Shown: positions 5,493 through 64,000 of the stretch, in pieces | How the letters are laid out: the number at the start of each line of letters is the position of its first letter | Numbering within the stretch: the stretch's first letter is position 1 | NCBI GenBank assembly: GCA_965221905.1 | Contig: OZ244922.1 | Span: forward strand, 384,001 to 448,000 | Direction: 5' to 3' | Length of the DNA: 64,000 nucleotides | Origin: Chloroflexota bacterium | GTDB lineage: Bacteria; Chloroflexota; UBA11872; VXOZ01 | Program-made: the position numbers and the translations under genes | The notes under the pieces: model-generated | What the model was told of the DNA's origin: nothing | The model's input: the letters and a program-made list of their open reading frames with translations, nothing else | Databases searched by the model: none

Positions 5493-6678
5493 GAAAGGTC
5501 TGAGCAAGTCGGGATATGCATCGGTTTATGGGTATGTGCGGGATTGTGGGGTGGTTTGAGGTGTGTCTTGGCATGTGGGAGGGGCTGTTTTGGCTTTGAT
5601 GCGGTCCCGTTGGAAGCGCAATACGCTCCTGGCCGTGTTTTGGGCGCACTGCTCCCGTGTCATGTTGCCAACTGGCGTGCGGCCGTCATCACATTGGTCA
5701 GCCCCAGCAGCAACGCCAGCCGTTGCCTGTTCTTGGACAGACCCCGGTAGCGCACCGTGGCGTAGCCGAAGTGCCGCTTCACCCACAGGAACGGATGCTC
5801 TACTTTGGCCCTAACCGATGCTTTGCGCTGCTCTGCCAGCGCCGCCGCGCTCTCAGGCGCCAGTTTCCGCCGCAGCCCCGGCTTGAGCGCCACCTGCCAC
5901 GCTACGGCGCGCCCCTGATGCTCCGGTCGCTTCTGCACCCCCACGTACCCGGCGTCTCCCCACACCTGCTGCTCTGCGCCGTGCAGCAACGCCGCCGCTT
6001 GCGTTACGTCGTGCACGTTGGCCGATGTGGTGGTGAAGCTATGCACGAGCCCCGTCTGTGCGTCGACGCCGATGTGCAGCTTCATCCCAAAGTAATACTG
6101 GTTCCCCTTCTTCACCTGCCGCATCGCCGGGTCTCGCTCCCCCTCTCGGTTCTTCGTCGATGTCGGCGCCGCGATGATGGTCGCGTCCACTACCGTCCCC
6201 GCTCGCAGCCGCAAGCCCCGACCTGCCAAATGCGCGTTGATCTCCGCCAACAACCCCTCTCCTAACCGGTGCTTCTCCAGCAAATGCCGAAAGTGCAGAA
6301 TAGTCGTCTCGTCCGGCAGCGCCTCTGACAGCCGCAGCCCCACGAACCGCCGCACCGGTTCTACCTCGTACAGCATGTCCTCCATCCCAGGATCGCTCAG
6401 GTTGTAGAACAACTGCACGCAGTGTATCCGCAGCATTACCGACAAGGGATACGGCCGCCGCCCCCGCCCTGGCTTGGGATAGTACGGCGCAATGCGCGCC
6501 TCCATCTCCGCCCACGGGAGCAGCGCGTCCATCCGCTCCAAGAACTTCCCCCGGCGCGTCTTGCGCTTCTTCTGCGCGTACTCCAAGTCGGCAAACGTCG
6601 GTTGCTCCATTACCCAGCTCCTCACCGTATCCTGCTTTCTTGCTATGATACTATGCCAGGGACTTGTTCAGAGTTTTC
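5493..6678 (-). mobile_element. Complete IS5-family insertion sequence (~1.19 kb)
   Basis: Imperfect terminal inverted repeats (G)GAAAGGTCTGAGCAAGTC / (G)GAAAACTCTGAACAAGTC; CTAG direct repeat at 5489-5492 and 6679-6682; single transposase inside. Confidence 0.93.
5660..6610 (-). CDS. IS5 family DDE transposase
   Basis: YNLSDPGMED, LPDETTILHFRHLLE, VDATII, YFGMKLHIGVD, GDAGY, RAKVEHPF; ATG at 6610 with GAGGAG RBS. Confidence 0.95.
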   Translation of the reverse strand: MEQPTFADLEYAQKKRKTRRGKFLERMDALLPWAEMEARIAPYYPKPGRGRRPYPLSVMLRIHCVQLFYNLSDPGMEDMLYEVEPVRRFVGLRLSEALPDETTILHFRHLLEKHRLGEGLLAEINAHLAGRGLRLRAGTVVDATIIAAPTSTKNREGERDPAMRQVKKGNQYYFGMKLHIGVDAQTGLVHSFTTTSANVHDVTQAAALLHGAEQQVWGDAGYVGVQKRPEHQGRAVAWQVALKPGLRRKLAPESAAALAEQRKASVRAKVEHPFLWVKRHFGYATVRYRGLSKNRQRLALLLGLTNVMTAARQLAT

Positions 6679-9600
6679 CTAGGTTGCCGAGCGTATCTGG
6701 GATGCTGCCGCTGAACTGGTTATTGTGCGCACGCAAGGCACGTAGGTTCGCAAGGCCGCCAAGCCACGGCGGTATGGTACCGCCAAGCAGGTTGCTATGC
6801 AGGTCCAACGTCCGGAGGTTGGCGAGGCTGCCCAGCGAGGCAGGTATCTCGCCGGTGAGTTGGTTGCTATGTAGGCTAAGTTGCTCCAGATTGATGAGGT
6901 TGCCAAGTTCAGGGGGAATGCTGCCGTTGACCCTGCTTCCATTTAGCCACAGTGCTCTGAGGTTCTTTAGATTGCCTAGTGTGGCTGGGATGCCTCCGGT
7001 TAGTCCACTGTATCCAAGATACAGACCTTCCAGGTCGGTGAGTTCTCCGAGTTCAGGAGGGATGGCGCCTTCAAGCCGGTTGACGTGCAGGTAAAGGTTT
7101 TTCAACTTCGTGAGCTTGGCGATTTCGCTGGGAATGGTGCCGGAGAGTTCATTGAAGGATAGCGCTAGGGTCTGCAGCTTGGTGAGATTGCTCAGCTCTA
7201 AAGGAATGGGGCCGCTGAGCCGATTCGATGAGAGGGAAAGTGCCTCTAGATTCGCCAGGTTGCCCAGCAAGGGAGGAATCGTGCCGGTGAGTTCGTTGGC
7301 ATACAGTTGCAAGTACTGCAGTTTGGTCAGCTTGGCTATTTCCATGGGTATGGTGCCGGTGAGTTGATTGAAGGACAGGTCCAGCGACTTCAATTTGTAT
7401 AGGTCGGCGATTGATGTGGGAATAGTGCCGCTCAGTTCGTTTTCGTTTAGACTGAGCGATTCCAAGTTTGCGAGTTGGCCCAATGCCGATGGGATGCCGC
7501 CACTGAGGTCGTTCCAACTAAGATCGAGAGTCTTGAGATCGGTCAGATGCGCTAGTTCCTTAGGGATACTGCCGGTAAGTCCGTTGCCGCCGAGATCGAG
7601 CGAATGCAGGCTGGTCAGCCGTCCCAATTCCGCGGGAATGCTGCCCTTGAGGCCGTTCTGGCTTAGGTCGAGCGTTTGCAGGTGAGCGAGGTTGCCGATG
7701 GCAGGGGGAATGGTGCCGTCAAGCCTACTCTCTTTGAGCGAAAGGGCTGTGACTCTAGCCGCGCCGTCCACCGTGCTGATGGTTACGCCTTCCCACGTTG
7801 ACATTGGGAAGTCCGCATTCCAACCCAGCAAGATCAGGCCGAACAGCGCATGTTTCAACCCCAGCAGTGCCTCGCAATCGGCAACCAGTCCCGAGTTATT
7901 CACCGCATCCTCTACCGCTTGCCCCGTCGCACACCCGTGGTCCCACTGTGCTTGGCCTTCATCAGAAAACCGGTTTCCATGCAGTTGGAGCCTCTTTAGT
8001 TTTGTGAGTCTGCCAAGCGATTCCGGAACTCTGCCGCTCAGTTGGTTGTTGGACAAGTACAGAGACTCCAGTTCGGTCAGATTACCGAGCGAGGCGGGAA
8101 TACTGCCGCTGAGGAGATTGTCGCTTAGATCAAGCTGGCGCAATCTGGTGAGGTCTCCGAATTCGTTGGGTATGCGGCCGGTCAGTTGATTCTTCTGCAT
8201 CCGCAGGTAATTCAGTCTGGTGAGGTTACCAAACGTCGTAGGAATAGTGCCGCTGAAGCCGTTGTGGCTTAGAAGCAGCCATGTCAATTTGGTGAGATTG
8301 CCCAACTCAGGGGGAATTGTGCCGGTAAGCTCATTGTTGCTCAGGAACAACAGCCCCAGTCCCCGCATTTGCCCCAGCTCCGGCGGGATCGAACCGCTAA
8401 GCTGATTGCCCGAAAGTCGCAATTTCCATAGATTCGTCAGTTTACTCAATTCCGGTGGTATGGTACCGGTGAGTTGATTTTCATCCAACTCCAGTGAGAC
8501 TAAGCCGGCGAGGTTACCGAGTTCTGGGGGAATCTCACCACTCAGACGGTTCCCCTTCAGAATCAACCACTGCAGGTTTGTGAGATCGCTCAAATCAACC
8601 GGAATGTTGCCGCTGACCTGATTGTAAGAGAGATCCAGTGCACTTACGTTGGCCAAGTTGCCGAATGTGCCGGGAATTGGGCCGCCAAGTTCGTTCCGAT
8701 CCAGTCTGATCTCCCTCAGTCTGGTAAGGTTGCCAAGCGAAGGGGGGATGGTCCCGCTAAGTTCGTTTTCGCCCAAGTGGAGGCTCTGCAGGTCGGAGAG
8801 GTTGCCAACTTCGCTGGGTATGGGGCCGATCAGTTTGTTGCTCTGCACACTAAGCTCGGTGAGCTGTGTCAGATTGCCTAGCGTGGCAGGAATACTGCCG
8901 CTTAGCAGGTTGTCACCCAGATCCAGCCTGCGCAGTGCGGTCAGTCTGCCCAGCTTCGCTGGGATCTTGCCTGCTAACTGGTTTTTCTGTAATTGCAGTA
9001 TCTGCAGGTACTTGAGGTCACCCAGCGAACTGGGAAATGGGCCGGTCAATTGGTTGTTGGAGAGATCCAGATTCTCTAATTCTCCGAGTCCGCCAAACGT
9101 TTCAGGGATGCTGCCGCTAAGCTGATTGTGTGAAAGATCGAGATACGCCAATGCTGTGAGACTGCCGATGGAACCCGGAATCTCGCCCAAGAGCTGGTTG
9201 TTGCGGAGTATCAGTCCTTCCAAGGCCAGGAGATCGCCAAACGTGTCCGGTATACTGCCGCTCAGTTGGTTGTCGTGCGCGTGCAACTCGCGGAGGTTGG
9301 GCAAGCCGCCGAGTGAAGCGGGAGTTGCCCCGCTAAGCAAATTGCGATGCAGGTCGAGCGATTCCAGCAGCGTGAGGCTGCCAAGCATCGCCGGAATCTC
9401 GCCGGAGAGTTGATTACCAAATAGCCAGAGGTGCTCAAGTCGAGAGAGGTTGCCGAGCGTGCCGGGGATGCTGCCGGTGAGTTGATTGCCATCCAGATGC
9501 AGTTTCCTGAGACCCGTGAGATTGCCTATTTCCGGCGGTATGATGCCATTGAGATTCTTCTCCCAAAGCGACAGAGCTACGACCCGCTCAATACCATCCA

Positions 9601-58161: not shown

Positions 58162-59787
58162 ATGCAATCGACTGTACCGTGGCGCAGAGAGTTTCTTTCC
58201 GGGGCAATTGCCGCGGTGGCTTTTCTCGCGATCTACTTTGTCGTTCGCTTCATTTGGCAGATTCCGGCGCTGCCGGAGGCGGTGATCGAAGGCATTCTTA
58301 ACTTCATTCCGCCTGCCCTCTTCGAGGCGGTAATTCAGATCTTCGGCTCCATGGCCAAGACACTGAACTTCTACGCGATACTCATTGGCATGGTTAGCGC
58401 GGGCGGCGTGGCGGGGCTGCTCTACGGTCGTCTGCTTGCTATAATTGGCGCAAACGAAAGCAACAGCGGCGGGACGCCAACGGCGTTGCTGTACGGCCTT
58501 GGTTTCGGCGGGTTGCTGTGGCTGGTCCACGCGGTGACGATTTCGCCATTCGCGGAACGCGGCTTCTTCGGCATGGATGCATCCTCACCGGTCATTGCTG
58601 CCGTTGCCATCGACATCATTGCCTATTTGGCATTTGGGTTTGTGCTTGCGTACGTCCGGCAACCCTTCGTCGTTGAGACGTCCGAAACGGCCTCTGAGGG
58701 CGTGTTGTCCCGTCGGTCGCTGGTGCCCTTGGCCGCTTCCGGGCTGGCCTTAGGCGGCGCCTACGCGCTCAAGCGCTCATTTGCGGCGCAAGCGCAGGCC
58801 ATCTTCAATGAACCGGCGAAAGAGACTACTCTTTCCGCCAGTGGCGAATCGCTCCCCATATTTCAGAAGGGCTTTGAGGGACTGGAACCCCTGGTTACGC
58901 CCAACGACGAGTTCTACGTAATCTCCAAGAACAGTATTGATCCAACCGTAAACGTAGAGGACTGGAGTCTTACCATCACCGGCATGGTGGATAACAAGAT
59001 GACTCTGGATTACGATGCGCTAACGGCCATGCCCACCCAGCAGCAATACGCGACTCTGCAATGCATCAGCAACTCGGTCGGCGGAGACCTCATCGGCTGT
59101 GCGCTGTGGGAAGGGGTGCCGCTGTGGAACCTGCTGGTCCAAGCGGGCATACAGCCGGGCGTGAAGGACATCGTCTTGCACGCGGCAGACGGTTACCAGG
59201 AGAGCATCCCGCTTGAAAAGGCGCAGGACCCCAACGTGCTCTTGGCGTTCCGCATGAACGGCGCGATACTGCCGAACAACCACGGTTTTCCGGCGCGCCT
59301 GGTTGTGCCGAACATCTATGGCATGAAGAACGTGAAGTGGCTGACGCGGATCGAGCCGGTAGACCATGATTTCAAGGGCTTCTGGCAACAGCGCGGCTGG
59401 AGCGATGAAGCCATCATTAAGACGATGTCCCGCATCGACGCGCCGAACAACGGCGCCACGGTGAGTGTCAAGGTGGACCGGGAAGTCTTGATCGGCGGCA
59501 TCGCCTTTGCCGGCAACCGCGGCATAAGCAGGGTCGAAGTCAGCATCGATGAGGGCGATAACTGGATAGAGGCGGAACTTGGCAAGGAGCTCACCCCGTT
59601 TTCGTGGGTGCAGTGGAAAACTACGTGGGAACCACCGGTAGCGGCCGGTTACACTATTCGGGTGCGCGCTACCGACGGCGCCGGTAGTCTGCAAGACGAG
59701 ACGCGGCTCGAACCCGCGCCCAATGGCGCCTCTGGCTGGCACACTATCAACACGCGCATCAGCGGCATTAGCGATGGGCAGAATTAG
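58162..59787 (+). CDS. Membrane-anchored sulfite-oxidase-family molybdopterin oxidoreductase
   Basis: TPNDEFY, TLQCISN (Mo-ligand Cys), ADGY, MNG..LP.NHGFPARL.VP.IYG.KNVKWL, C-terminal Ig-like dimerisation domain. Confidence 0.92.
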   Translation: MQSTVPWRREFLSGAIAAVAFLAIYFVVRFIWQIPALPEAVIEGILNFIPPALFEAVIQIFGSMAKTLNFYAILIGMVSAGGVAGLLYGRLLAIIGANESNSGGTPTALLYGLGFGGLLWLVHAVTISPFAERGFFGMDASSPVIAAVAIDIIAYLAFGFVLAYVRQPFVVETSETASEGVLSRRSLVPLAASGLALGGAYALKRSFAAQAQAIFNEPAKETTLSASGESLPIFQKGFEGLEPLVTPNDEFYVISKNSIDPTVNVEDWSLTITGMVDNKMTLDYDALTAMPTQQQYATLQCISNSVGGDLIGCALWEGVPLWNLLVQAGIQPGVKDIVLHAADGYQESIPLEKAQDPNVLLAFRMNGAILPNNHGFPARLVVPNIYGMKNVKWLTRIEPVDHDFKGFWQQRGWSDEAIIKTMSRIDAPNNGATVSVKVDREVLIGGIAFAGNRGISRVEVSIDEGDNWIEAELGKELTPFSWVQWKTTWEPPVAAGYTIRVRATDGAGSLQDETRLEPAPNGASGWHTINTRISGISDGQN

Positions 59788-60051: not shown

Positions 60052-61113
60052 CTAGAGGCACCCTGACAGAGAAGGAATGCCGAACGTCTCTGCCATAGAG
60101 TCCAGGTCTTCGACGATTTGGGTTGCGAAGGCGATGCCGTCGCGCAGGAAGTGTTCTTTGCGCTCTAGCTCGATTTCGCCGGGCAGGTAAATGCGCTCGA
60201 CTCCCTTGGCTTTTTCCGACGTGCGCATCTGGCGGATCTGCACGTCCATGCGCTGCTTGAATTCGTCCACGGGCATCATGTGGCCTATGTCGAGCGCCAT
60301 GAAGAAATGGCCCATGGCCTGCGGCGTATTGGGGATACCGCCCCGGCGCACGTCTTGGCCGAAGAGCGCCCCTGTGAGCACGCCGCACAGCGCGTCGAGC
60401 ACCACGGCAAGGCCGTAGCCCTTGGGACCGCCCACCGGCGCCATGAGCTTTGCCAAGCTGGGGTCCTCTGTGGGTTCGCCGGTGGCCGTCAAGGCCCAGC
60501 CGGGGGGAATGGGCTCGTTCTTGCGCCTGGCCAGCGCTACCTTGCCCGCAGCGACCACGCTCACGGCCATGTCGAGCATGAGCGGGCGTTCCGTGGCTGC
60601 CGGAATCGCATAGGCGATGGGCGTGTTGCTCAAGCTGGGCGTGACGCCGCCGTAGGGCGCCATTACCTGAATGCCGTTGGTTGAACAAAATCCGATGGCG
60701 TCGTGGTCGAGAGCGCGCATGGTGAAGTAAGCCGCAGCGCCGAAGTGGTTGCTCTCGCGCACGCCCACCGCGCCGATGCCGAATTGTTTGGCTTTCTCGA
60801 TTGCCAGGTCCATGGCCTGCACGCCCGCCACTTGTCCCATGGCGTTGCGCGCGCTGATGAGTCCGGTGGCCCCGCTGTCCGAAACCACCTCCGGTGTGCC
60901 GGTCGGATCGATAGATCCCACCTGAATCCAATTGGCGTAGAGCGGGAGAAAGTTGCTGCCGTGGGTAAAGACGCCGGTGAGATCGGCGTGCACCAGCGAC
61001 TGCGCCACCTGCGCCGCATCGTCCGGCCGCATGCCGACCGTCCGCAGCGCTTCGGTATCAAAGGCTTCGATTATCGCGGCCGGGACACGGACAATTCCAG
61101 CTTCATCGGACAT
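60052..61113 (-). CDS. Ldh_2 family oxidoreductase (more distant fourth paralog)
   Basis: G.FTHG, SNHFG, MAPYGG, NTPIA, LDMA, GGPKGYGL, YLPGE. Confidence 0.92.
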   Translation of the reverse strand: MSDEAGIVRVPAAIIEAFDTEALRTVGMRPDDAAQVAQSLVHADLTGVFTHGSNFLPLYANWIQVGSIDPTGTPEVVSDSGATGLISARNAMGQVAGVQAMDLAIEKAKQFGIGAVGVRESNHFGAAAYFTMRALDHDAIGFCSTNGIQVMAPYGGVTPSLSNTPIAYAIPAATERPLMLDMAVSVVAAGKVALARRKNEPIPPGWALTATGEPTEDPSLAKLMAPVGGPKGYGLAVVLDALCGVLTGALFGQDVRRGGIPNTPQAMGHFFMALDIGHMMPVDEFKQRMDVQIRQMRTSEKAKGVERIYLPGEIELERKEHFLRDGIAFATQIVEDLDSMAETFGIPSLSGCL

Positions 61114-61345
61114 GGATTGGTCTCCCTTATGTCTTGTCAATGATTAACAAGCATTCGGCGGCTTGGTTGCCAGATAGACGCCAAGGCTGCGGACGCCGAG
61201 AGCGCCTTCTGAAACGATCCAGCGATAGCGGATACAGGCCATGCTATTATAGCATTCGAGCTGTGAAGGTTCCGCAAATGTGATAGGAAGTCAAGTACTT
61301 GTCACCCCCTAGAAACGCAATGGAAATGACTAAGGAGATAAAGCA

Positions 61346-63376
61346 ATGAGAGAGTTTTCAAAAGAGTTGACTTATGTTAGACAAGCCTTCGCAGATGGCC
61401 ATGCTTTACTCGTCGGAGAAGGCAGGAACCAGCGTATTCAGTATGTTGATTCAGACCACTCCGATCGTTGGGCCGACCCAGAGGAGAAAGTTCGGGCCGA
61501 ATTGTGGGCAGAGTTGATTTATAAGTACGACTATTCGCCAAACCGGATTCGCTTTGAGGTCAATGTTCCTCGTCGCACGCCAAACGACTTTGCTGACCTG
61601 GTGATTTATAGTGACGAGGAACTAAAGCAACCCTATTTTGTTTTTGAGTGCAAACGTGCAGACGTGTCTGACACTGAATTCAATCAATCTATAGAGCAAT
61701 CGTGTGGCAACCGCGCCAGCTTGGGGGCGCAATTCAGTGGGGCTGTTGCTGGTCTGACCCGACGCCTATTGCGATTTGACGCTTTCCCCCCTGGTGAGCG
61801 CGACAAGAACCATCTCACAGACATTCCCATACGCTACGGCAATCTAGCTGAGTGGCGCTTCTATAAGAACGAACAAGGCCGCGACCTTGCCGCCGTTCCG
61901 CGTGAAGGGTTGCGCGCCGCTATTCGCAAGTGCCATCAAACGCTTTGGGAGGGTGGCCGCCGCAGCCCTATTGAGGCGTTCGGTGAGTTCTCTAAGCTCG
62001 TCTTCATCAAGCACCGTGACGAAAAGAAACTGGAGCGCAAGAACGGCGAACCGTACGCATTCCAACGCCGCGATGGAGAGACTGCCGTCGAACTTGCTGA
62101 CCGCATTTTCGAACTCTACGACGCTGAAAAGGAACGGGAGCCGGACGTGTTCTCCGATCGCATCAACGTTGACGCAGCTATCGTCGCGCAGTGCGTGGAG
62201 CACCTGGAGGGCATTTCGCTCGACCGTACGGAACTCGACACCAAGGGCGTCGCATTTGAGGAATTCATGGGCGGTTTCTTTAAAGGTGACTTTGGACAAT
62301 ATTTCACGCCCCGCGAACTCATTGCCTTTGCTGTGGAGATGATTGACCCAAAACGAGATGACCAAATCCTCGACCCCGCCTGTGGGTCTGGCGGCTTCTT
62401 GCTTTACGCCCTTGATCATATTCGTCGCGAGGCCACTGAGTACTACGAAACTGACACCGTCGACCACTTCCGATTCTGGCACGACTTTGCGGAGAACTAC
62501 CTTTTTGGTATTGACATTTATGATGCGCTTGTGCGGGTCGCCAAGATGAATATGATCATCCACGATGACGGACACACTAACATCCTCGGCCATGACGCTC
62601 TTGACTTCATTGAAGAAATTCAGGGACAGAATTCCGGCATCACCAAAGAGAAATTCGACCTTATCCTCACCAATCCACCCTTTGGTTCGGTCATCAAGCG
62701 TATAGAAAAGGGAGACGCCTATATTGAGCAATTTGAACTGCGCCACTACCTCAGCAAACAATGGCCTCTATACACTGAAGTAACAGGGACTGATGTTGAA
62801 ATTGGAGCGAAAGGTGGGGCAAGAGCTGTAAGGGAGCGCGCAAGCATTAGAACGGAAATTGTGTTCCTAGAGCGCATTCACACTTTTCTCAAGCCAGGTC
62901 TTGGCCGCGCTGCAGTAGTGCTACCCGATGGAATTCTAACGAACTCCTCCCTCCTGGGGGTGCGTCATTGGCTGCTCGCCCACTTTCAAATCTTGGCAGT
63001 TGTTAGCCTTCCCGACTTCGCCTTTCAGCACTATGACGCTGGTGTGAAGTCAAGTATTGTGTTCCTGCGTCGACTTCACGTTGGCGAGACGGTACCCGAA
63101 GACGTTGCTATATTCATGGCCCTTGCTGAAAACATCGGCTACGACGCAACTGGTCGTAAGACCTTTAAAGTGACAGTGGAGAAAGAAGTGCCAGGCAAGA
63201 CGATGATTGAACGGCAAAGCTGTGACCTATTCGACTATCGGGTTTTCTACGAGTGGAGCAATACAAATCCGGAGGAGCCCGCATGGAGTGAGCGCCGTCG
63301 AGAAATTATCCCCAATACAGGCCTCGTTGCTCAGTGGCGTGCATTCCAGCAGGACCCGACACCTTTTTTCGTATAG
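61346..63376 (+). CDS. Fused restriction endonuclease (HsdR_N-type PD-(D/E)xK) and N6-adenine DNA methyltransferase
   Basis: PEEKVR...ADLVIY...FECKR nuclease; GQYFTPR, DPACGSGGFL (motif I), NPPF (motif IV); AAGGAG RBS; visibly less GC-rich than flanks. Confidence 0.92.
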   Translation: MREFSKELTYVRQAFADGHALLVGEGRNQRIQYVDSDHSDRWADPEEKVRAELWAELIYKYDYSPNRIRFEVNVPRRTPNDFADLVIYSDEELKQPYFVFECKRADVSDTEFNQSIEQSCGNRASLGAQFSGAVAGLTRRLLRFDAFPPGERDKNHLTDIPIRYGNLAEWRFYKNEQGRDLAAVPREGLRAAIRKCHQTLWEGGRRSPIEAFGEFSKLVFIKHRDEKKLERKNGEPYAFQRRDGETAVELADRIFELYDAEKEREPDVFSDRINVDAAIVAQCVEHLEGISLDRTELDTKGVAFEEFMGGFFKGDFGQYFTPRELIAFAVEMIDPKRDDQILDPACGSGGFLLYALDHIRREATEYYETDTVDHFRFWHDFAENYLFGIDIYDALVRVAKMNMIIHDDGHTNILGHDALDFIEEIQGQNSGITKEKFDLILTNPPFGSVIKRIEKGDAYIEQFELRHYLSKQWPLYTEVTGTDVEIGAKGGARAVRERASIRTEIVFLERIHTFLKPGLGRAAVVLPDGILTNSSLLGVRHWLLAHFQILAVVSLPDFAFQHYDAGVKSSIVFLRRLHVGETVPEDVAIFMALAENIGYDATGRKTFKVTVEKEVPGKTMIERQSCDLFDYRVFYEWSNTNPEEPAWSERRREIIPNTGLVAQWRAFQQDPTPFFV

Positions 63377-63423
63377 GCCCCGCTAAGGCAGCAGAAGCAA
63401 AAGCATTTGCGCTTAGGCGGGGC
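63351..63423 (+). promoter_or_regulatory. Putative -1 programmed ribosomal frameshift signal
   Basis: AGGA at 63351-63354; T_TTT_TTC at 63364-63370 in the MTase frame; 6-nt spacer containing the stop; stem GCCCCGC-TAAG-GCA / TGC-g-CTTA-g-GCGGGGC at 63377-63423. Confidence 0.65.
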
Positions 63424-64000
63424 AGCACCCAGGGACGGTTGGACGCGAAATTCCATTTTGATCACGAACGACTGCGCTCTCGAATAGATTCAACCCCAAT
63501 ACCCAAACCGAAGTTAGGTGAGGTCTTGGTCTCGATCGCGAGCGGCGCGACGCCCAGACGAAGTGACTCTTCACTTTACACTAGCACGGGAGTCAAGTTT
63601 CTACGAATCTTGAATGTTCAAGATGGTGAAATCTTAGAAGAAAATGTGAAGTATATCACTGACGCCGTTCATGAGGGCAGTCTTCGTCGTTCTCAGCTTG
63701 CATCAGGTGACGTCCTGATGACTATTACCGGTAGAGTGGGATCAGCAGCGGTTGTTCGAGAAAACAATCTTCCTGCTAACATCAATCAGCATGTCGTTCG
63801 CTTGAGGATTGATACTCGACGTTGCTTGCCGGAATTCCTCTCTGCCTGGCTGAATTGCCCAGCTGGACTTGAACTCTCAAACCACCCCGTGTCAGGAGGC
63901 ACGCGGTCTGCACTCGACTACGGTGCCATTCGAGATTTACGTGTTCCTTTGCCGGAGTCGTTACGGGCTCAAGAAAAGCTACTTTGCAACCTAGGAAAGG
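63364..64000 (+). CDS. Restriction-modification specificity (HsdS/TRD) subunit region, -1 frame, runs off the window
   Basis: Manual translation: GRLDAKF...KLGEV..SIASGATP...VKFLRILNV...GDVLMTITGRVG...ANINQHV.RLR...PEFL..WLN...LRVPLP; frame open from 63292; first ATG only at 63718. Confidence 0.85.

Follow-up and report, generated by a model that had tools for sequence, protein, structure and literature searches.

A predicted, conserved -1 ribosomal frameshift at the junction of the RM and S genes of a Type IIB-like restriction-modification family

At the end of a 64,000-nucleotide stretch of a Chloroflexota bacterium genome (assembly GCA_965221905.1, contig OZ244922.1, positions 384,001 to 448,000 of the forward strand; this whole stretch is referred to below as the window, and positions are counted within it unless stated otherwise) lies a restriction-modification (R-M) locus, in which a gene for a fused nuclease and methyltransferase (RM) is overlapped by the -1 reading frame of a specificity subunit (S). 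From a comparison of this locus with its homologues, we propose that a conserved programmed -1 ribosomal frameshift at the last codons of RM gives access to S, which would lack a start codon of its own, and we put the probability of this reading at about 0.8. The proposal is built on direct observations, namely the sequence features of the junction and their conservation, the covariation of a downstream hairpin, a codon bias at the slip site, the lack of any S start shared among the loci and the disappearance of the signals from in-frame fusions. That ribosomes actually shift at this site, how frequently they do so and that the shift serves subunit stoichiometry are points that we infer from these sequence observations.

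The overlap of the RM and S reading frames

The RM gene ends with CCT TTT TTC GTA TAG (PFFV*), and the S frame is offset from it by -1. Both features had been put forward in an earlier note made from the sequence alone and both match the sequence and the list of open reading frames (ORFs), as do, upon recheck, all of that note's other sequence statements and coordinates, including an in-phase heptamer followed by a 6-nt spacer and a stem-loop. The elements of the junction, all on the plus strand, are the following:

61346-63376, plus strand: RM gene in the 0 frame, 676 aa, from the ORF list; fused PD-(D/E)xK nuclease and N6-adenine methyltransferase
63334-63336, plus strand: GTG, candidate start in the S frame, with no purine-rich stretch upstream
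63351-63354, plus strand: AGGA resembling a Shine-Dalgarno (SD) sequence, 9 nt 5' of the heptamer
63364-63370, plus strand: slippery heptamer T_TTT_TTC (of the type X_XXY_YYZ), in phase with the RM 0 frame; proposed -1 shift site
63370-64000, plus strand: S coding sequence in the -1 frame (linker and first target recognition domain, TRD1), predicted to be reached via the shift and continuing to 64005, beyond the window
63371-63376, plus strand: 6-nt spacer GTATAG, including the 0-frame stop TAG at 63374-63376
63377-63423, plus strand: GC-rich stem-loop of 47 nt, -30.9 kcal/mol, beginning 6 nt after the heptamer; proposed frameshift stimulator
63439-63441, plus strand: TTG, candidate start in the S frame, with GGGA just 3 nt upstream

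This arrangement suggests how the shift would proceed. While CCU UUU UUC is decoded, tRNA-Phe would occupy both the P and the A site, and both tRNAs would re-pair perfectly one base back on U_UUU_UUC, with the hairpin, 6 nt downstream and thus at the canonical distance, pausing the ribosome over the heptamer. Ribosomes that do not slip would read one more codon, stop and yield the 676-aa RM, while those that slip would read R-I-G-P-A-K... into S and, in loci with an intact S, produce an RM-S trans-frame protein of ~1140 aa.

The stem-loop at 63377-63423 folds with a minimum free energy (MFE) of -30.9 kcal/mol and a z-score of -4.56, and none of 200 dinucleotide shuffles folds as well. A search of Rfam found no family matching positions 63250-63550 at E values up to 1. 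We rejected the idea that the T run and the hairpin form a transcription terminator, given that the T run precedes the hairpin on the plus strand and that, on the minus strand, it is an A run that follows it.

The S frame opens at 63292, reaches its first GTG at 63334 and its first in-frame ATG only at 63718 (the M of DVLMTITG), and stops at 64005. GTG 63334 and TTG 63439 are thus the only common start codons ahead of that ATG, and the context of both is weak as a ribosome-binding site, again as the earlier note had it. As for the length of the T run, the possibility that T6 is an assembly error was checked in Logan contigs of four runs from four studies, which show zero indels across 63000-64000 and T6 throughout. 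One of these contigs (X1) agrees with the window letter for letter and could derive from the source sample, and two others (X4 and X7) carry a T to C change at 63372, which turns an RM Val into Ala, and retain T6. Among the runs listed as containing the stretch there is no RNA run, a result that carries no information on expression.

Conservation of the junction among homologous loci

The best 120 protein relatives of the C-terminal half of RM are 69-98% identical to it, and 115 of the 120 end with F[FL]x at the same residue. The family as a whole numbers at least 537 loci. For the survey of the junction, 80 loci were chosen by RM protein similarity from one-genome-per-species contigs (GTDB species genomes), and they fall into these classes:

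Layout as in the window: 61 of 80 loci, 53 of them among L003-L058, L061 and L064, plus 8 at 44-57% RM identity (L059, L060, L062, L063, L065, L067, L069 and L072)
Same layout, cut by a contig end: 1 of 80 (L037)
In-frame fusions: 2 of 80 (L003 and L056)
Decayed: 1 of 80 (L028, with T5 and a degenerate downstream region)
S ATG overlapping the RM stop: 1 of 80 (L052)
Separate S gene with its own ATG: 10 of 80, mostly from candidate-phyla bacteria, with one of the 10 from an archaeon
Different downstream genes: 4 of 80

The hosts of the frameshift-type loci include Dehalococcoidia and other Chloroflexota, cyanobacterial isolates, beta-, gamma- and deltaproteobacteria, Bacillota, Actinomycetota, Acidobacteriota, Gemmatimonadota, Planctomycetota, Verrucomicrobiota, Armatimonadota, Latescibacterota, Nitrospirota-like lineages and a lineage of the class Ignavibacteria (Melioribacteraceae). 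A search of a plasmid collection returned no close relative, the best match having 36.9% identity. The tests of the junction described below were carried out on 54 loci, that is, the window and 53 fetched loci.

In all 54 loci the three terminal RM codons read NNT TTT TTN, the heptamer being T_TTT_TTC in 45, T_TTT_TTA in 6 and T_TTT_TTT in 3. The codon preceding the two Phe codons has T as its last base in every locus, including those in which it specifies Ser (AGT, TCT), Arg (CGT) or Leu (CTT). In the rest of the same genes, by comparison, Phe is encoded by TTT in 759 of 2060 cases (37%) and Pro by CCT in 282 of 1909 (15%); other Phe-Phe pairs start with TTT in 22 of 69 cases, and a conserved internal GGFF motif is encoded TTC TTC in 21 of 35. 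In 53 of the 54 loci a single codon separates the heptamer from a 0-frame stop (TAA, TAG or TGA); in the remaining one, L026, the stop follows immediately. The SD-like AGGA, which the earlier note had counted among the signals, is present 9 nt upstream of the heptamer as it stated, but it does not hold as a conserved element: a comparable 4-mer occurs in only 30 of 62 loci, without codon bias, the Lys codon at the site being AAG in 13 and AAA in 13. On these counts we regard the AGGA as a by-product of the Lys/Arg-Asp codons that does not belong to the conserved signal.

A stem of at least 5 bp begins 5-7 nt after the heptamer in 54 of 54 loci, as judged by per-locus MFE folds, and the mean folding energy of the junction, in a 62-nt window, is -28.6 ± 6.0 kcal/mol. 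The hairpin spans 47 nt in 33 of these loci; in 8 others it is a short hairpin of 17-18 nt that uses the same 5' arm with a different partner. The covariation test was run on a MAFFT alignment of the junctions with a structure of 17 named pairs. The outer helix was found to be 89.4% paired, 12 of the 17 pairs displayed changes on both sides, and the covariation score was 0.199, compared to 0.153 ± 0.009 in shuffled alignments (0 of 500 reached the observed score) and 0.067-0.131 when the partners were slid. As a control for the encoded protein motif, we used the central S linker, which carries the same FAV ... R.D motif, in those 30 of the 40 long-S loci whose central motif could be identified. 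The folding energy is -29.1 kcal/mol for the junction and -15.9 ± 6.6 kcal/mol for the linker, the junction being the more stable of the two in 28 of the 30 loci, and random S windows fold at -13.4 kcal/mol. The comparison of homologues called for in the earlier note, which was to look for the heptamer, the -1 offset and a stem-loop with compensatory changes, thus came out positive, with all three features in 54 of 54 loci and covarying stem pairs.

As regards an S start, 32 of the 54 loci, this one included, have an ATG or GTG 30 nt ahead of the T run, and 13 have a GTG or ATG at +48. In 21 loci the S frame is closed by a stop between the -30 position and the T run, in L022 and L029 immediately before the codon that precedes TTT TTT, and 6 loci have no ATG, GTG or TTG from the opening of the S frame to +125. 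Conservation of the S-frame amino acids begins at the slip site, with FF-R-[LVI]-[SG]-P ... C-F-A-V-R-R-G, and the S part measures 431-502 aa in 40 of the 54 loci. GTG 63334 was rejected as a general S start, being a by-product of conserved RM Gln-Trp codons after which 21 of the loci close the S frame; TTG 63439 was likewise rejected, since it lies downstream of the conserved FA[LV].RG motif that belongs to S and its position is not conserved.

These data bear on the alternative that translation of S has its own start, at GTG 63334, TTG 63439 or a non-canonical codon, with the hairpin serving translational coupling by masking the S start until it is opened by translation of RM, and the T run being merely Phe-Phe. 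Apart from the upstream GTG or ATG, sporadic GTG, TTG and ATG codons do occur downstream, L052 and L024 carry an ATG overlapping the RM stop, and M and S genes that overlap and are coupled are the usual case for Type I systems, as the consulted portion of PMC3510504 reports for EcoKI. Yet no start position is conserved among the 54 loci, in contrast to what the earlier note had named as grounds for abandoning its idea, a conserved independent S start in homologues devoid of a slippery site. Moreover, a start downstream of the hairpin would remove FA[VL].RG, a motif kept at the N-terminus in relatives with a separate S, coupling leaves the NNT TTT TTN at synonymous sites in 54 of 54 loci unexplained, and the only locus with a clear separate start, L052, has lost both heptamer and hairpin. 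We therefore consider independent initiation of S quite improbable as an account of the family.

Further support for the frameshift came from an independent set of 69 metagenome contigs matching a pattern of heptamer, stop and 5' arm. The independent evidence that they offer lies in the 3' arm and the ORFs only, the 5' part having served as the search pattern. All 69 matches follow an RM C-terminus (cut down to PFFV by the contig end in L107). Among the 68 that are long enough to fold, the 5' arm is paired in 63, the span is 47 nt in 48, and the -1 ORF is at least 400 aa long or runs off the contig end in 61.

The breadth of the layout also speaks to whether the frame break is simply damage or an artefact, that is, whether a formerly fused RMS gene has suffered a frameshift mutation or been misassembled, or whether the T run undergoes slipped-strand phase variation. 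This locus is indeed decaying, with an insertion sequence (IS) in S (see below), S is shortened in 14 of the 54 loci, many of the homologous loci come from metagenome-assembled genomes (MAGs), and L028, with its T5, is degenerate downstream. Nevertheless, T6 with the -1 layout is found in 45 of 54 loci and the 9 others, with the TTA or TTT variants, keep the phase; the layout recurs in isolate genomes and in assemblies from different technologies, as well as in the 69 metagenome contigs and the four-run contigs of this very sequence; the stop varies among TAA, TAG and TGA while its position is kept in 53 of 54; and the mixed run lengths that phase variation predicts were not seen. We find this explanation hardly credible.

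Natural variants and the state of the locus in this genome

Several members of the family do without the offset between the two frames. L003 and L056 are in-frame fusions of RM to an S with a single TRD; they have T5 and no stop, and fold at -12.0 and -17.4 kcal/mol. In a wider protein search, 14 long or partial fused forms were inspected, 10 of them with one TRD after the junction. Two others, P0127 (1136 aa) and P0170 (1154 aa), are in-frame fusions with a full two-TRD S, P0122 and P0128 are fused forms with shorter remainders, and P0123 and P0134 read exactly as the predicted trans-frame junction. The in-frame fusions join RM and S exactly at the frameshift point. The fusions of RM with a single-TRD half-S are L003, L056, P0018, P0027, P0042, P0123, P0125, P0134, P0160 and P0195, ~890-930 aa long where complete, and such proteins would reach a full complement as homodimers. 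A rule by which in-frame fusion occurs only with a half-S was rejected, as P0127 and P0170 have two TRDs.

In L052 (L052:3337-3476), from an Ignavibacteriales MAG, the heptamer position reads A_TTT_TTC, the S ATG overlaps the RM TGA (ATGA) and the fold reaches only -12.8 kcal/mol; judging by its sequence, L052 is a natural separate-start revertant of the family. L024 has ATGA too, but part of the hairpin is kept there and S is garbled. Since the signals are lost both in the in-frame fusions and in L052, it appears that heptamer and hairpin are kept where the frames are offset and S has no start, and lost where they are unneeded.

In more distant relatives (L071, L073-L078 and L080-L082), an RM of ~590-615 aa is accompanied by a separate S that begins with M-x-C-F a few bases from the RM stop. 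In the frameshift clade, this M-x-C-F start motif falls inside the hairpin, without an ATG there. Separate RM and S genes, as in the distant relatives, probably represent the ancestral two-gene state.

The T6 run and the fused proteins also raise the possibility that it is RNA polymerase, rather than the ribosome, that slips, adding one U in some transcripts and thereby encoding an in-frame RM-S fusion. The shift site is after all a homopolymer, with T7 or T8 runs in L026, L030, L035, L046, L048 and L061, and P0123 and P0134 read exactly as if the run were one T longer. Six T's are short for such slippage, known bacterial transcriptional slippage sites having runs of ~9 or more, and T6 is the sole run length in the DNA contigs. 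The 0-frame phase, the stop one codon on and the covarying hairpin at 5-7 nt are, furthermore, hallmarks of a ribosomal shift for which polymerase slippage has no need. The consulted part of Sharma 2014 mentions only that runs of 7 A or 7 U are under-represented. Overall, we deem polymerase slippage very improbable and retain the ribosomal frameshift.

With regard to the nature of the system, the locus is best explained as a BcgI/BsaXI-like (Type IIB-like) R-M system, judged from domain content. A single polypeptide carries a PD-(D/E)xK nuclease and a gamma-type N6-adenine methyltransferase, and S is Type I-like with two TRDs and two conserved helices, its gene being split by an IS in this genome. 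Pfam detects HSDR_N_2 (E 1.2e-09, residues 45-114) and N6_Mtase (E 5e-32) in RM, the nuclease domain being N-terminal, and the translation contains DPACGSGGF and NPPF, which we take to be methyltransferase motifs. The best solved relative of RM in a PDB search is RM.BsaXI (E 1.1e-23), with the best stretch limited to residues 158-419 and with Type I M subunits scoring almost equally. On the S fragment, Methylase_S of Pfam matches weakly within the window (E 0.0011, below the cut-off) and more clearly in the second half, beyond it (E 6.7e-07).

The S gene of this genome is interrupted at the very end of the window:

63991-63994, plus strand: CTAG target site, duplicated on the far side of the IS; the S pieces are contiguous in frame across it
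63995-64000, plus strand: left end of a 1186-bp element, presumably of the IS5 family, the remainder of which lies past the window

The S frame stops at 64005 because the IS begins at 63995. The terminal inverted repeats of the element are 86% complementary over 22 nt, with CTAG on both flanks, and its transposase, on the minus strand, matches DDE_Tnp_1 (E 4e-29) and DUF772 in Pfam; the family assignment is ours, made from these features. The genome holds 11 full-length copies at 100% identity, one of them at window positions 5493-6679 (G000 389493-390679), suggesting that the element was recently active. The X4 and X7 contigs, which come from related strains in two other studies and differ by 15 substitutions in 995 nt, cross the site without the IS, so that the insertion is recent and strain-specific. 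From the FF of the slip site onwards, the first S piece aligns at 68% identity with residues 1-211 of L016's intact S; the second piece, past the IS, aligns with residues 211-465 at 62% identity. The two lie end to end, with nothing but their continuity lost. With S split in its central helix, the R-M system is probably inactive in this genome, while the frameshift signal is intact; the local products would be RM and a truncated fusion of ~886 aa. S is also shortened, or its end garbled, in 13 of the 53 homologous loci (L004, L006, L008, L011, L013, L015, L024, L025, L029, L038, L042, L054 and L055), where R-M decay or MAG assembly errors may be responsible.

As to its surroundings, the R-M locus (61200-66000 in window coordinates, thus reaching past its end) has a G+C content of 0.49-0.56, against 0.60-0.65 in the flanking genes. 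A search of 40 related genomes (16 of the same genus) found no match to the RM protein at E values up to 1e-50, an absence that we use only as a sign of patchy distribution, and the whole has the look of an accessory locus gained by horizontal transfer. Elsewhere in the genome, at G000:C1:3232562-3233293, there is a second, distant N6-methyltransferase relative, with 34% identity over residues 184-421 and an open frame of 771 aa. Two long ORFs, at 58162-59787 (plus strand, 541 aa) and 60052-61140 (minus strand, 362 aa), are found upstream of the R-M locus in high-G+C, host-like DNA.

Several of our observations weigh against a frameshift, or against the purpose that we ascribe to it. The number of pairs with changes on both sides was matched by 6 of the 500 shuffles, RNAalifold, given the MAFFT alignment, found no more than 4 pairs and a consensus energy close to zero, and the junction sequences are related to each other, which inflates covariation tests. 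RNAalifold was set aside because loop lengths differ and 8 loci have the shorter hairpin, and the named structure and per-locus folds were used instead. The GTG or ATG upstream of the T run and the one at +48 allow for independent initiation at individual loci, and the loci do not consistently carry a dnaX-type SD-like element upstream (30 of 62 do). S is shortened or garbled in 14 of 54 loci, this one included, and its disruption in this genome means that nothing here is under current selection. Lastly, the two-TRD fusions P0127 and P0170 show that RM together with RM-S is not the sole arrangement that can work. It is not evident from them that the enzyme needs RM as a product of its own, and the case for a stoichiometric purpose is the weaker for it.

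Relation to known systems and significance

The nearest mechanistic parallel is dnaX of E. coli (tau/gamma), in which one mRNA likewise gives two products with a common N-terminus by means of an X_XXY_YYZ heptamer and a stem-loop a few nt downstream, and in which the product ratio matters for the assembly of the complex. The two differ in outcome: the shifted frame of dnaX stops almost at once, resulting in the shorter product, whereas the shift in RM would result in the longer one, with a whole subunit added. They also differ in their signals, the dnaX heptamer being A_AAA_AAG with a conserved upstream SD-like enhancer, and that of RM U_UUU_UUC with an SD-like sequence that is not conserved. 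The orfA-orfB pairs of IS3 and IS911 share with the RM locus a 0-frame product that ends just past the heptamer, a start-less -1 ORF made only as a trans-frame fusion, and a downstream stimulator. These -1 frameshift elements usually employ A_AAA_AAG-type motifs and encode the transposase of a mobile element, whereas the RM locus has two Phe codons and encodes a cellular defence enzyme. The consulted portion of PMC4066793 mentions the IS3 and IS911 stimulators and places H_HH.U_UU.Y heptamers among the most efficient class in E. coli. The signal is a canonical -1 site, and what appears to be new is the gene family and the appending of a whole subunit by the shift.

Among R-M enzymes, BsaXI and BcgI resemble the locus in having an RM that combines a PD-(D/E)xK nuclease at its N-terminus with an N6-adenine methyltransferase, and in having an S composed of TRD1-CR1-TRD2-CR2. 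Sequence similarity of BsaXI to this RM is low, its best stretch being the one given above. According to the consulted portion of PMC11997821, BsaXI is an (RM)2S heterotrimer that cleaves on both sides of a bipartite site; its RM and S were cloned as two distinct reading frames, each expressed on its own, and no frameshift is described there. The same portion describes single-chain RMS Type IIB enzymes, in which a flexible loop tethers S to the methyltransferase domain. In that tethering, the single-chain enzymes resemble the RM-S product proposed here; unlike the frameshift loci, they and the in-frame fusions of the family make the fused product only. A more distant kinship, with the MADS defence system, is suggested by the best NCBIfam models, MAD2 for RM (61346-63373; 288.5 bits, cut-off 720) and MAD5 for an intact S of the family (L016:4813-6222; 83.4 bits, cut-off 400), both far under their cut-offs. 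No other MADS genes were found in the ORF list of the stretch read around the locus, the rest of the window lying outside that list.

An instructive precedent is the engineered M-S fusion of EcoKI ('Type IMS', Roberts et al. 2012), in which M placed head-to-tail with S is functional. As described in the consulted part of PMC3510504, the fusion cleaves in vitro only with added free M, giving one M and one M-S per enzyme, and its authors concluded that the M C-terminus adjoins the S N-terminus. M together with M-S is the very mixture that a frameshift would supply. In EcoKI, unlike here, it was mutagenesis that removed the natural frame offset, and in the natural genes, which share 1 nt and are translationally coupled, S has a real start codon (PMC3510504, same part). 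RM and RM-S from one message would match the subunit needs of EcoKI and of (RM)2S enzymes, and it is this match that points to stoichiometry as the purpose: RM and RM-S would assemble as an (RM)2S-type enzyme, with the shift frequency setting the ratio of the products. On balance, we favour the setting of RM:S stoichiometry as the role of the frameshift. Of the earlier note's central claim, that one mRNA yields RM and an RM-S fusion by recoding, the general form is supported by the comparison of 54 loci; at this locus the fusion would be truncated by the IS, and the stoichiometric purpose is still an inference.

The earlier note also knew of no such mechanism in an R-M system. Our search of the full-text literature found no description of frameshifting between R-M subunits, though the supplementary tables of Antonov 2013 and Sharma 2014, which were outside its scope, could list such a cluster. 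In the parts of these sources that were covered, Antonov 2013 (PMC3711429) mentions, with respect to R-M, only the phase variation of Type III methyltransferases, the portion of Atkins 2016 (PMC5009743) searched has nothing on R-M, and Liang and Blumenthal 2013 (PMC3850674) considered frameshifting in a C-REase fusion and did not see it.

Taken as a whole, the comparison inclines us to the view that a widespread Type IIB-like family, present in more than 10 bacterial phyla, has given up the S start and makes S only as a -1 extension of RM, the shift frequency hard-wiring the RM:RM-S ratio. If true, this would be the first recoding known in any R-M system, and among the few conserved bacterial chromosomal -1 shifts outside dnaX, mobile elements and phages. 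Conserved programmed frameshifts are few in bacterial cellular genes and each is informative on subunit ratios or regulation; in this case the gene is that of a defence enzyme. It would also explain the start-less or "frameshifted" S genes found in gene calls, which run the risk of being mis-annotated as pseudogenes or given an arbitrary S start, and expressing such enzymes, whether for methylome work or as reagents, would require an intact overlap region. With its frameshift loci, in-frame fusions and separate-start loci, the family constitutes its own natural comparison set, and the frameshift would be a natural answer to the problem met with EcoKI, of an M-S fusion that needs extra free M.

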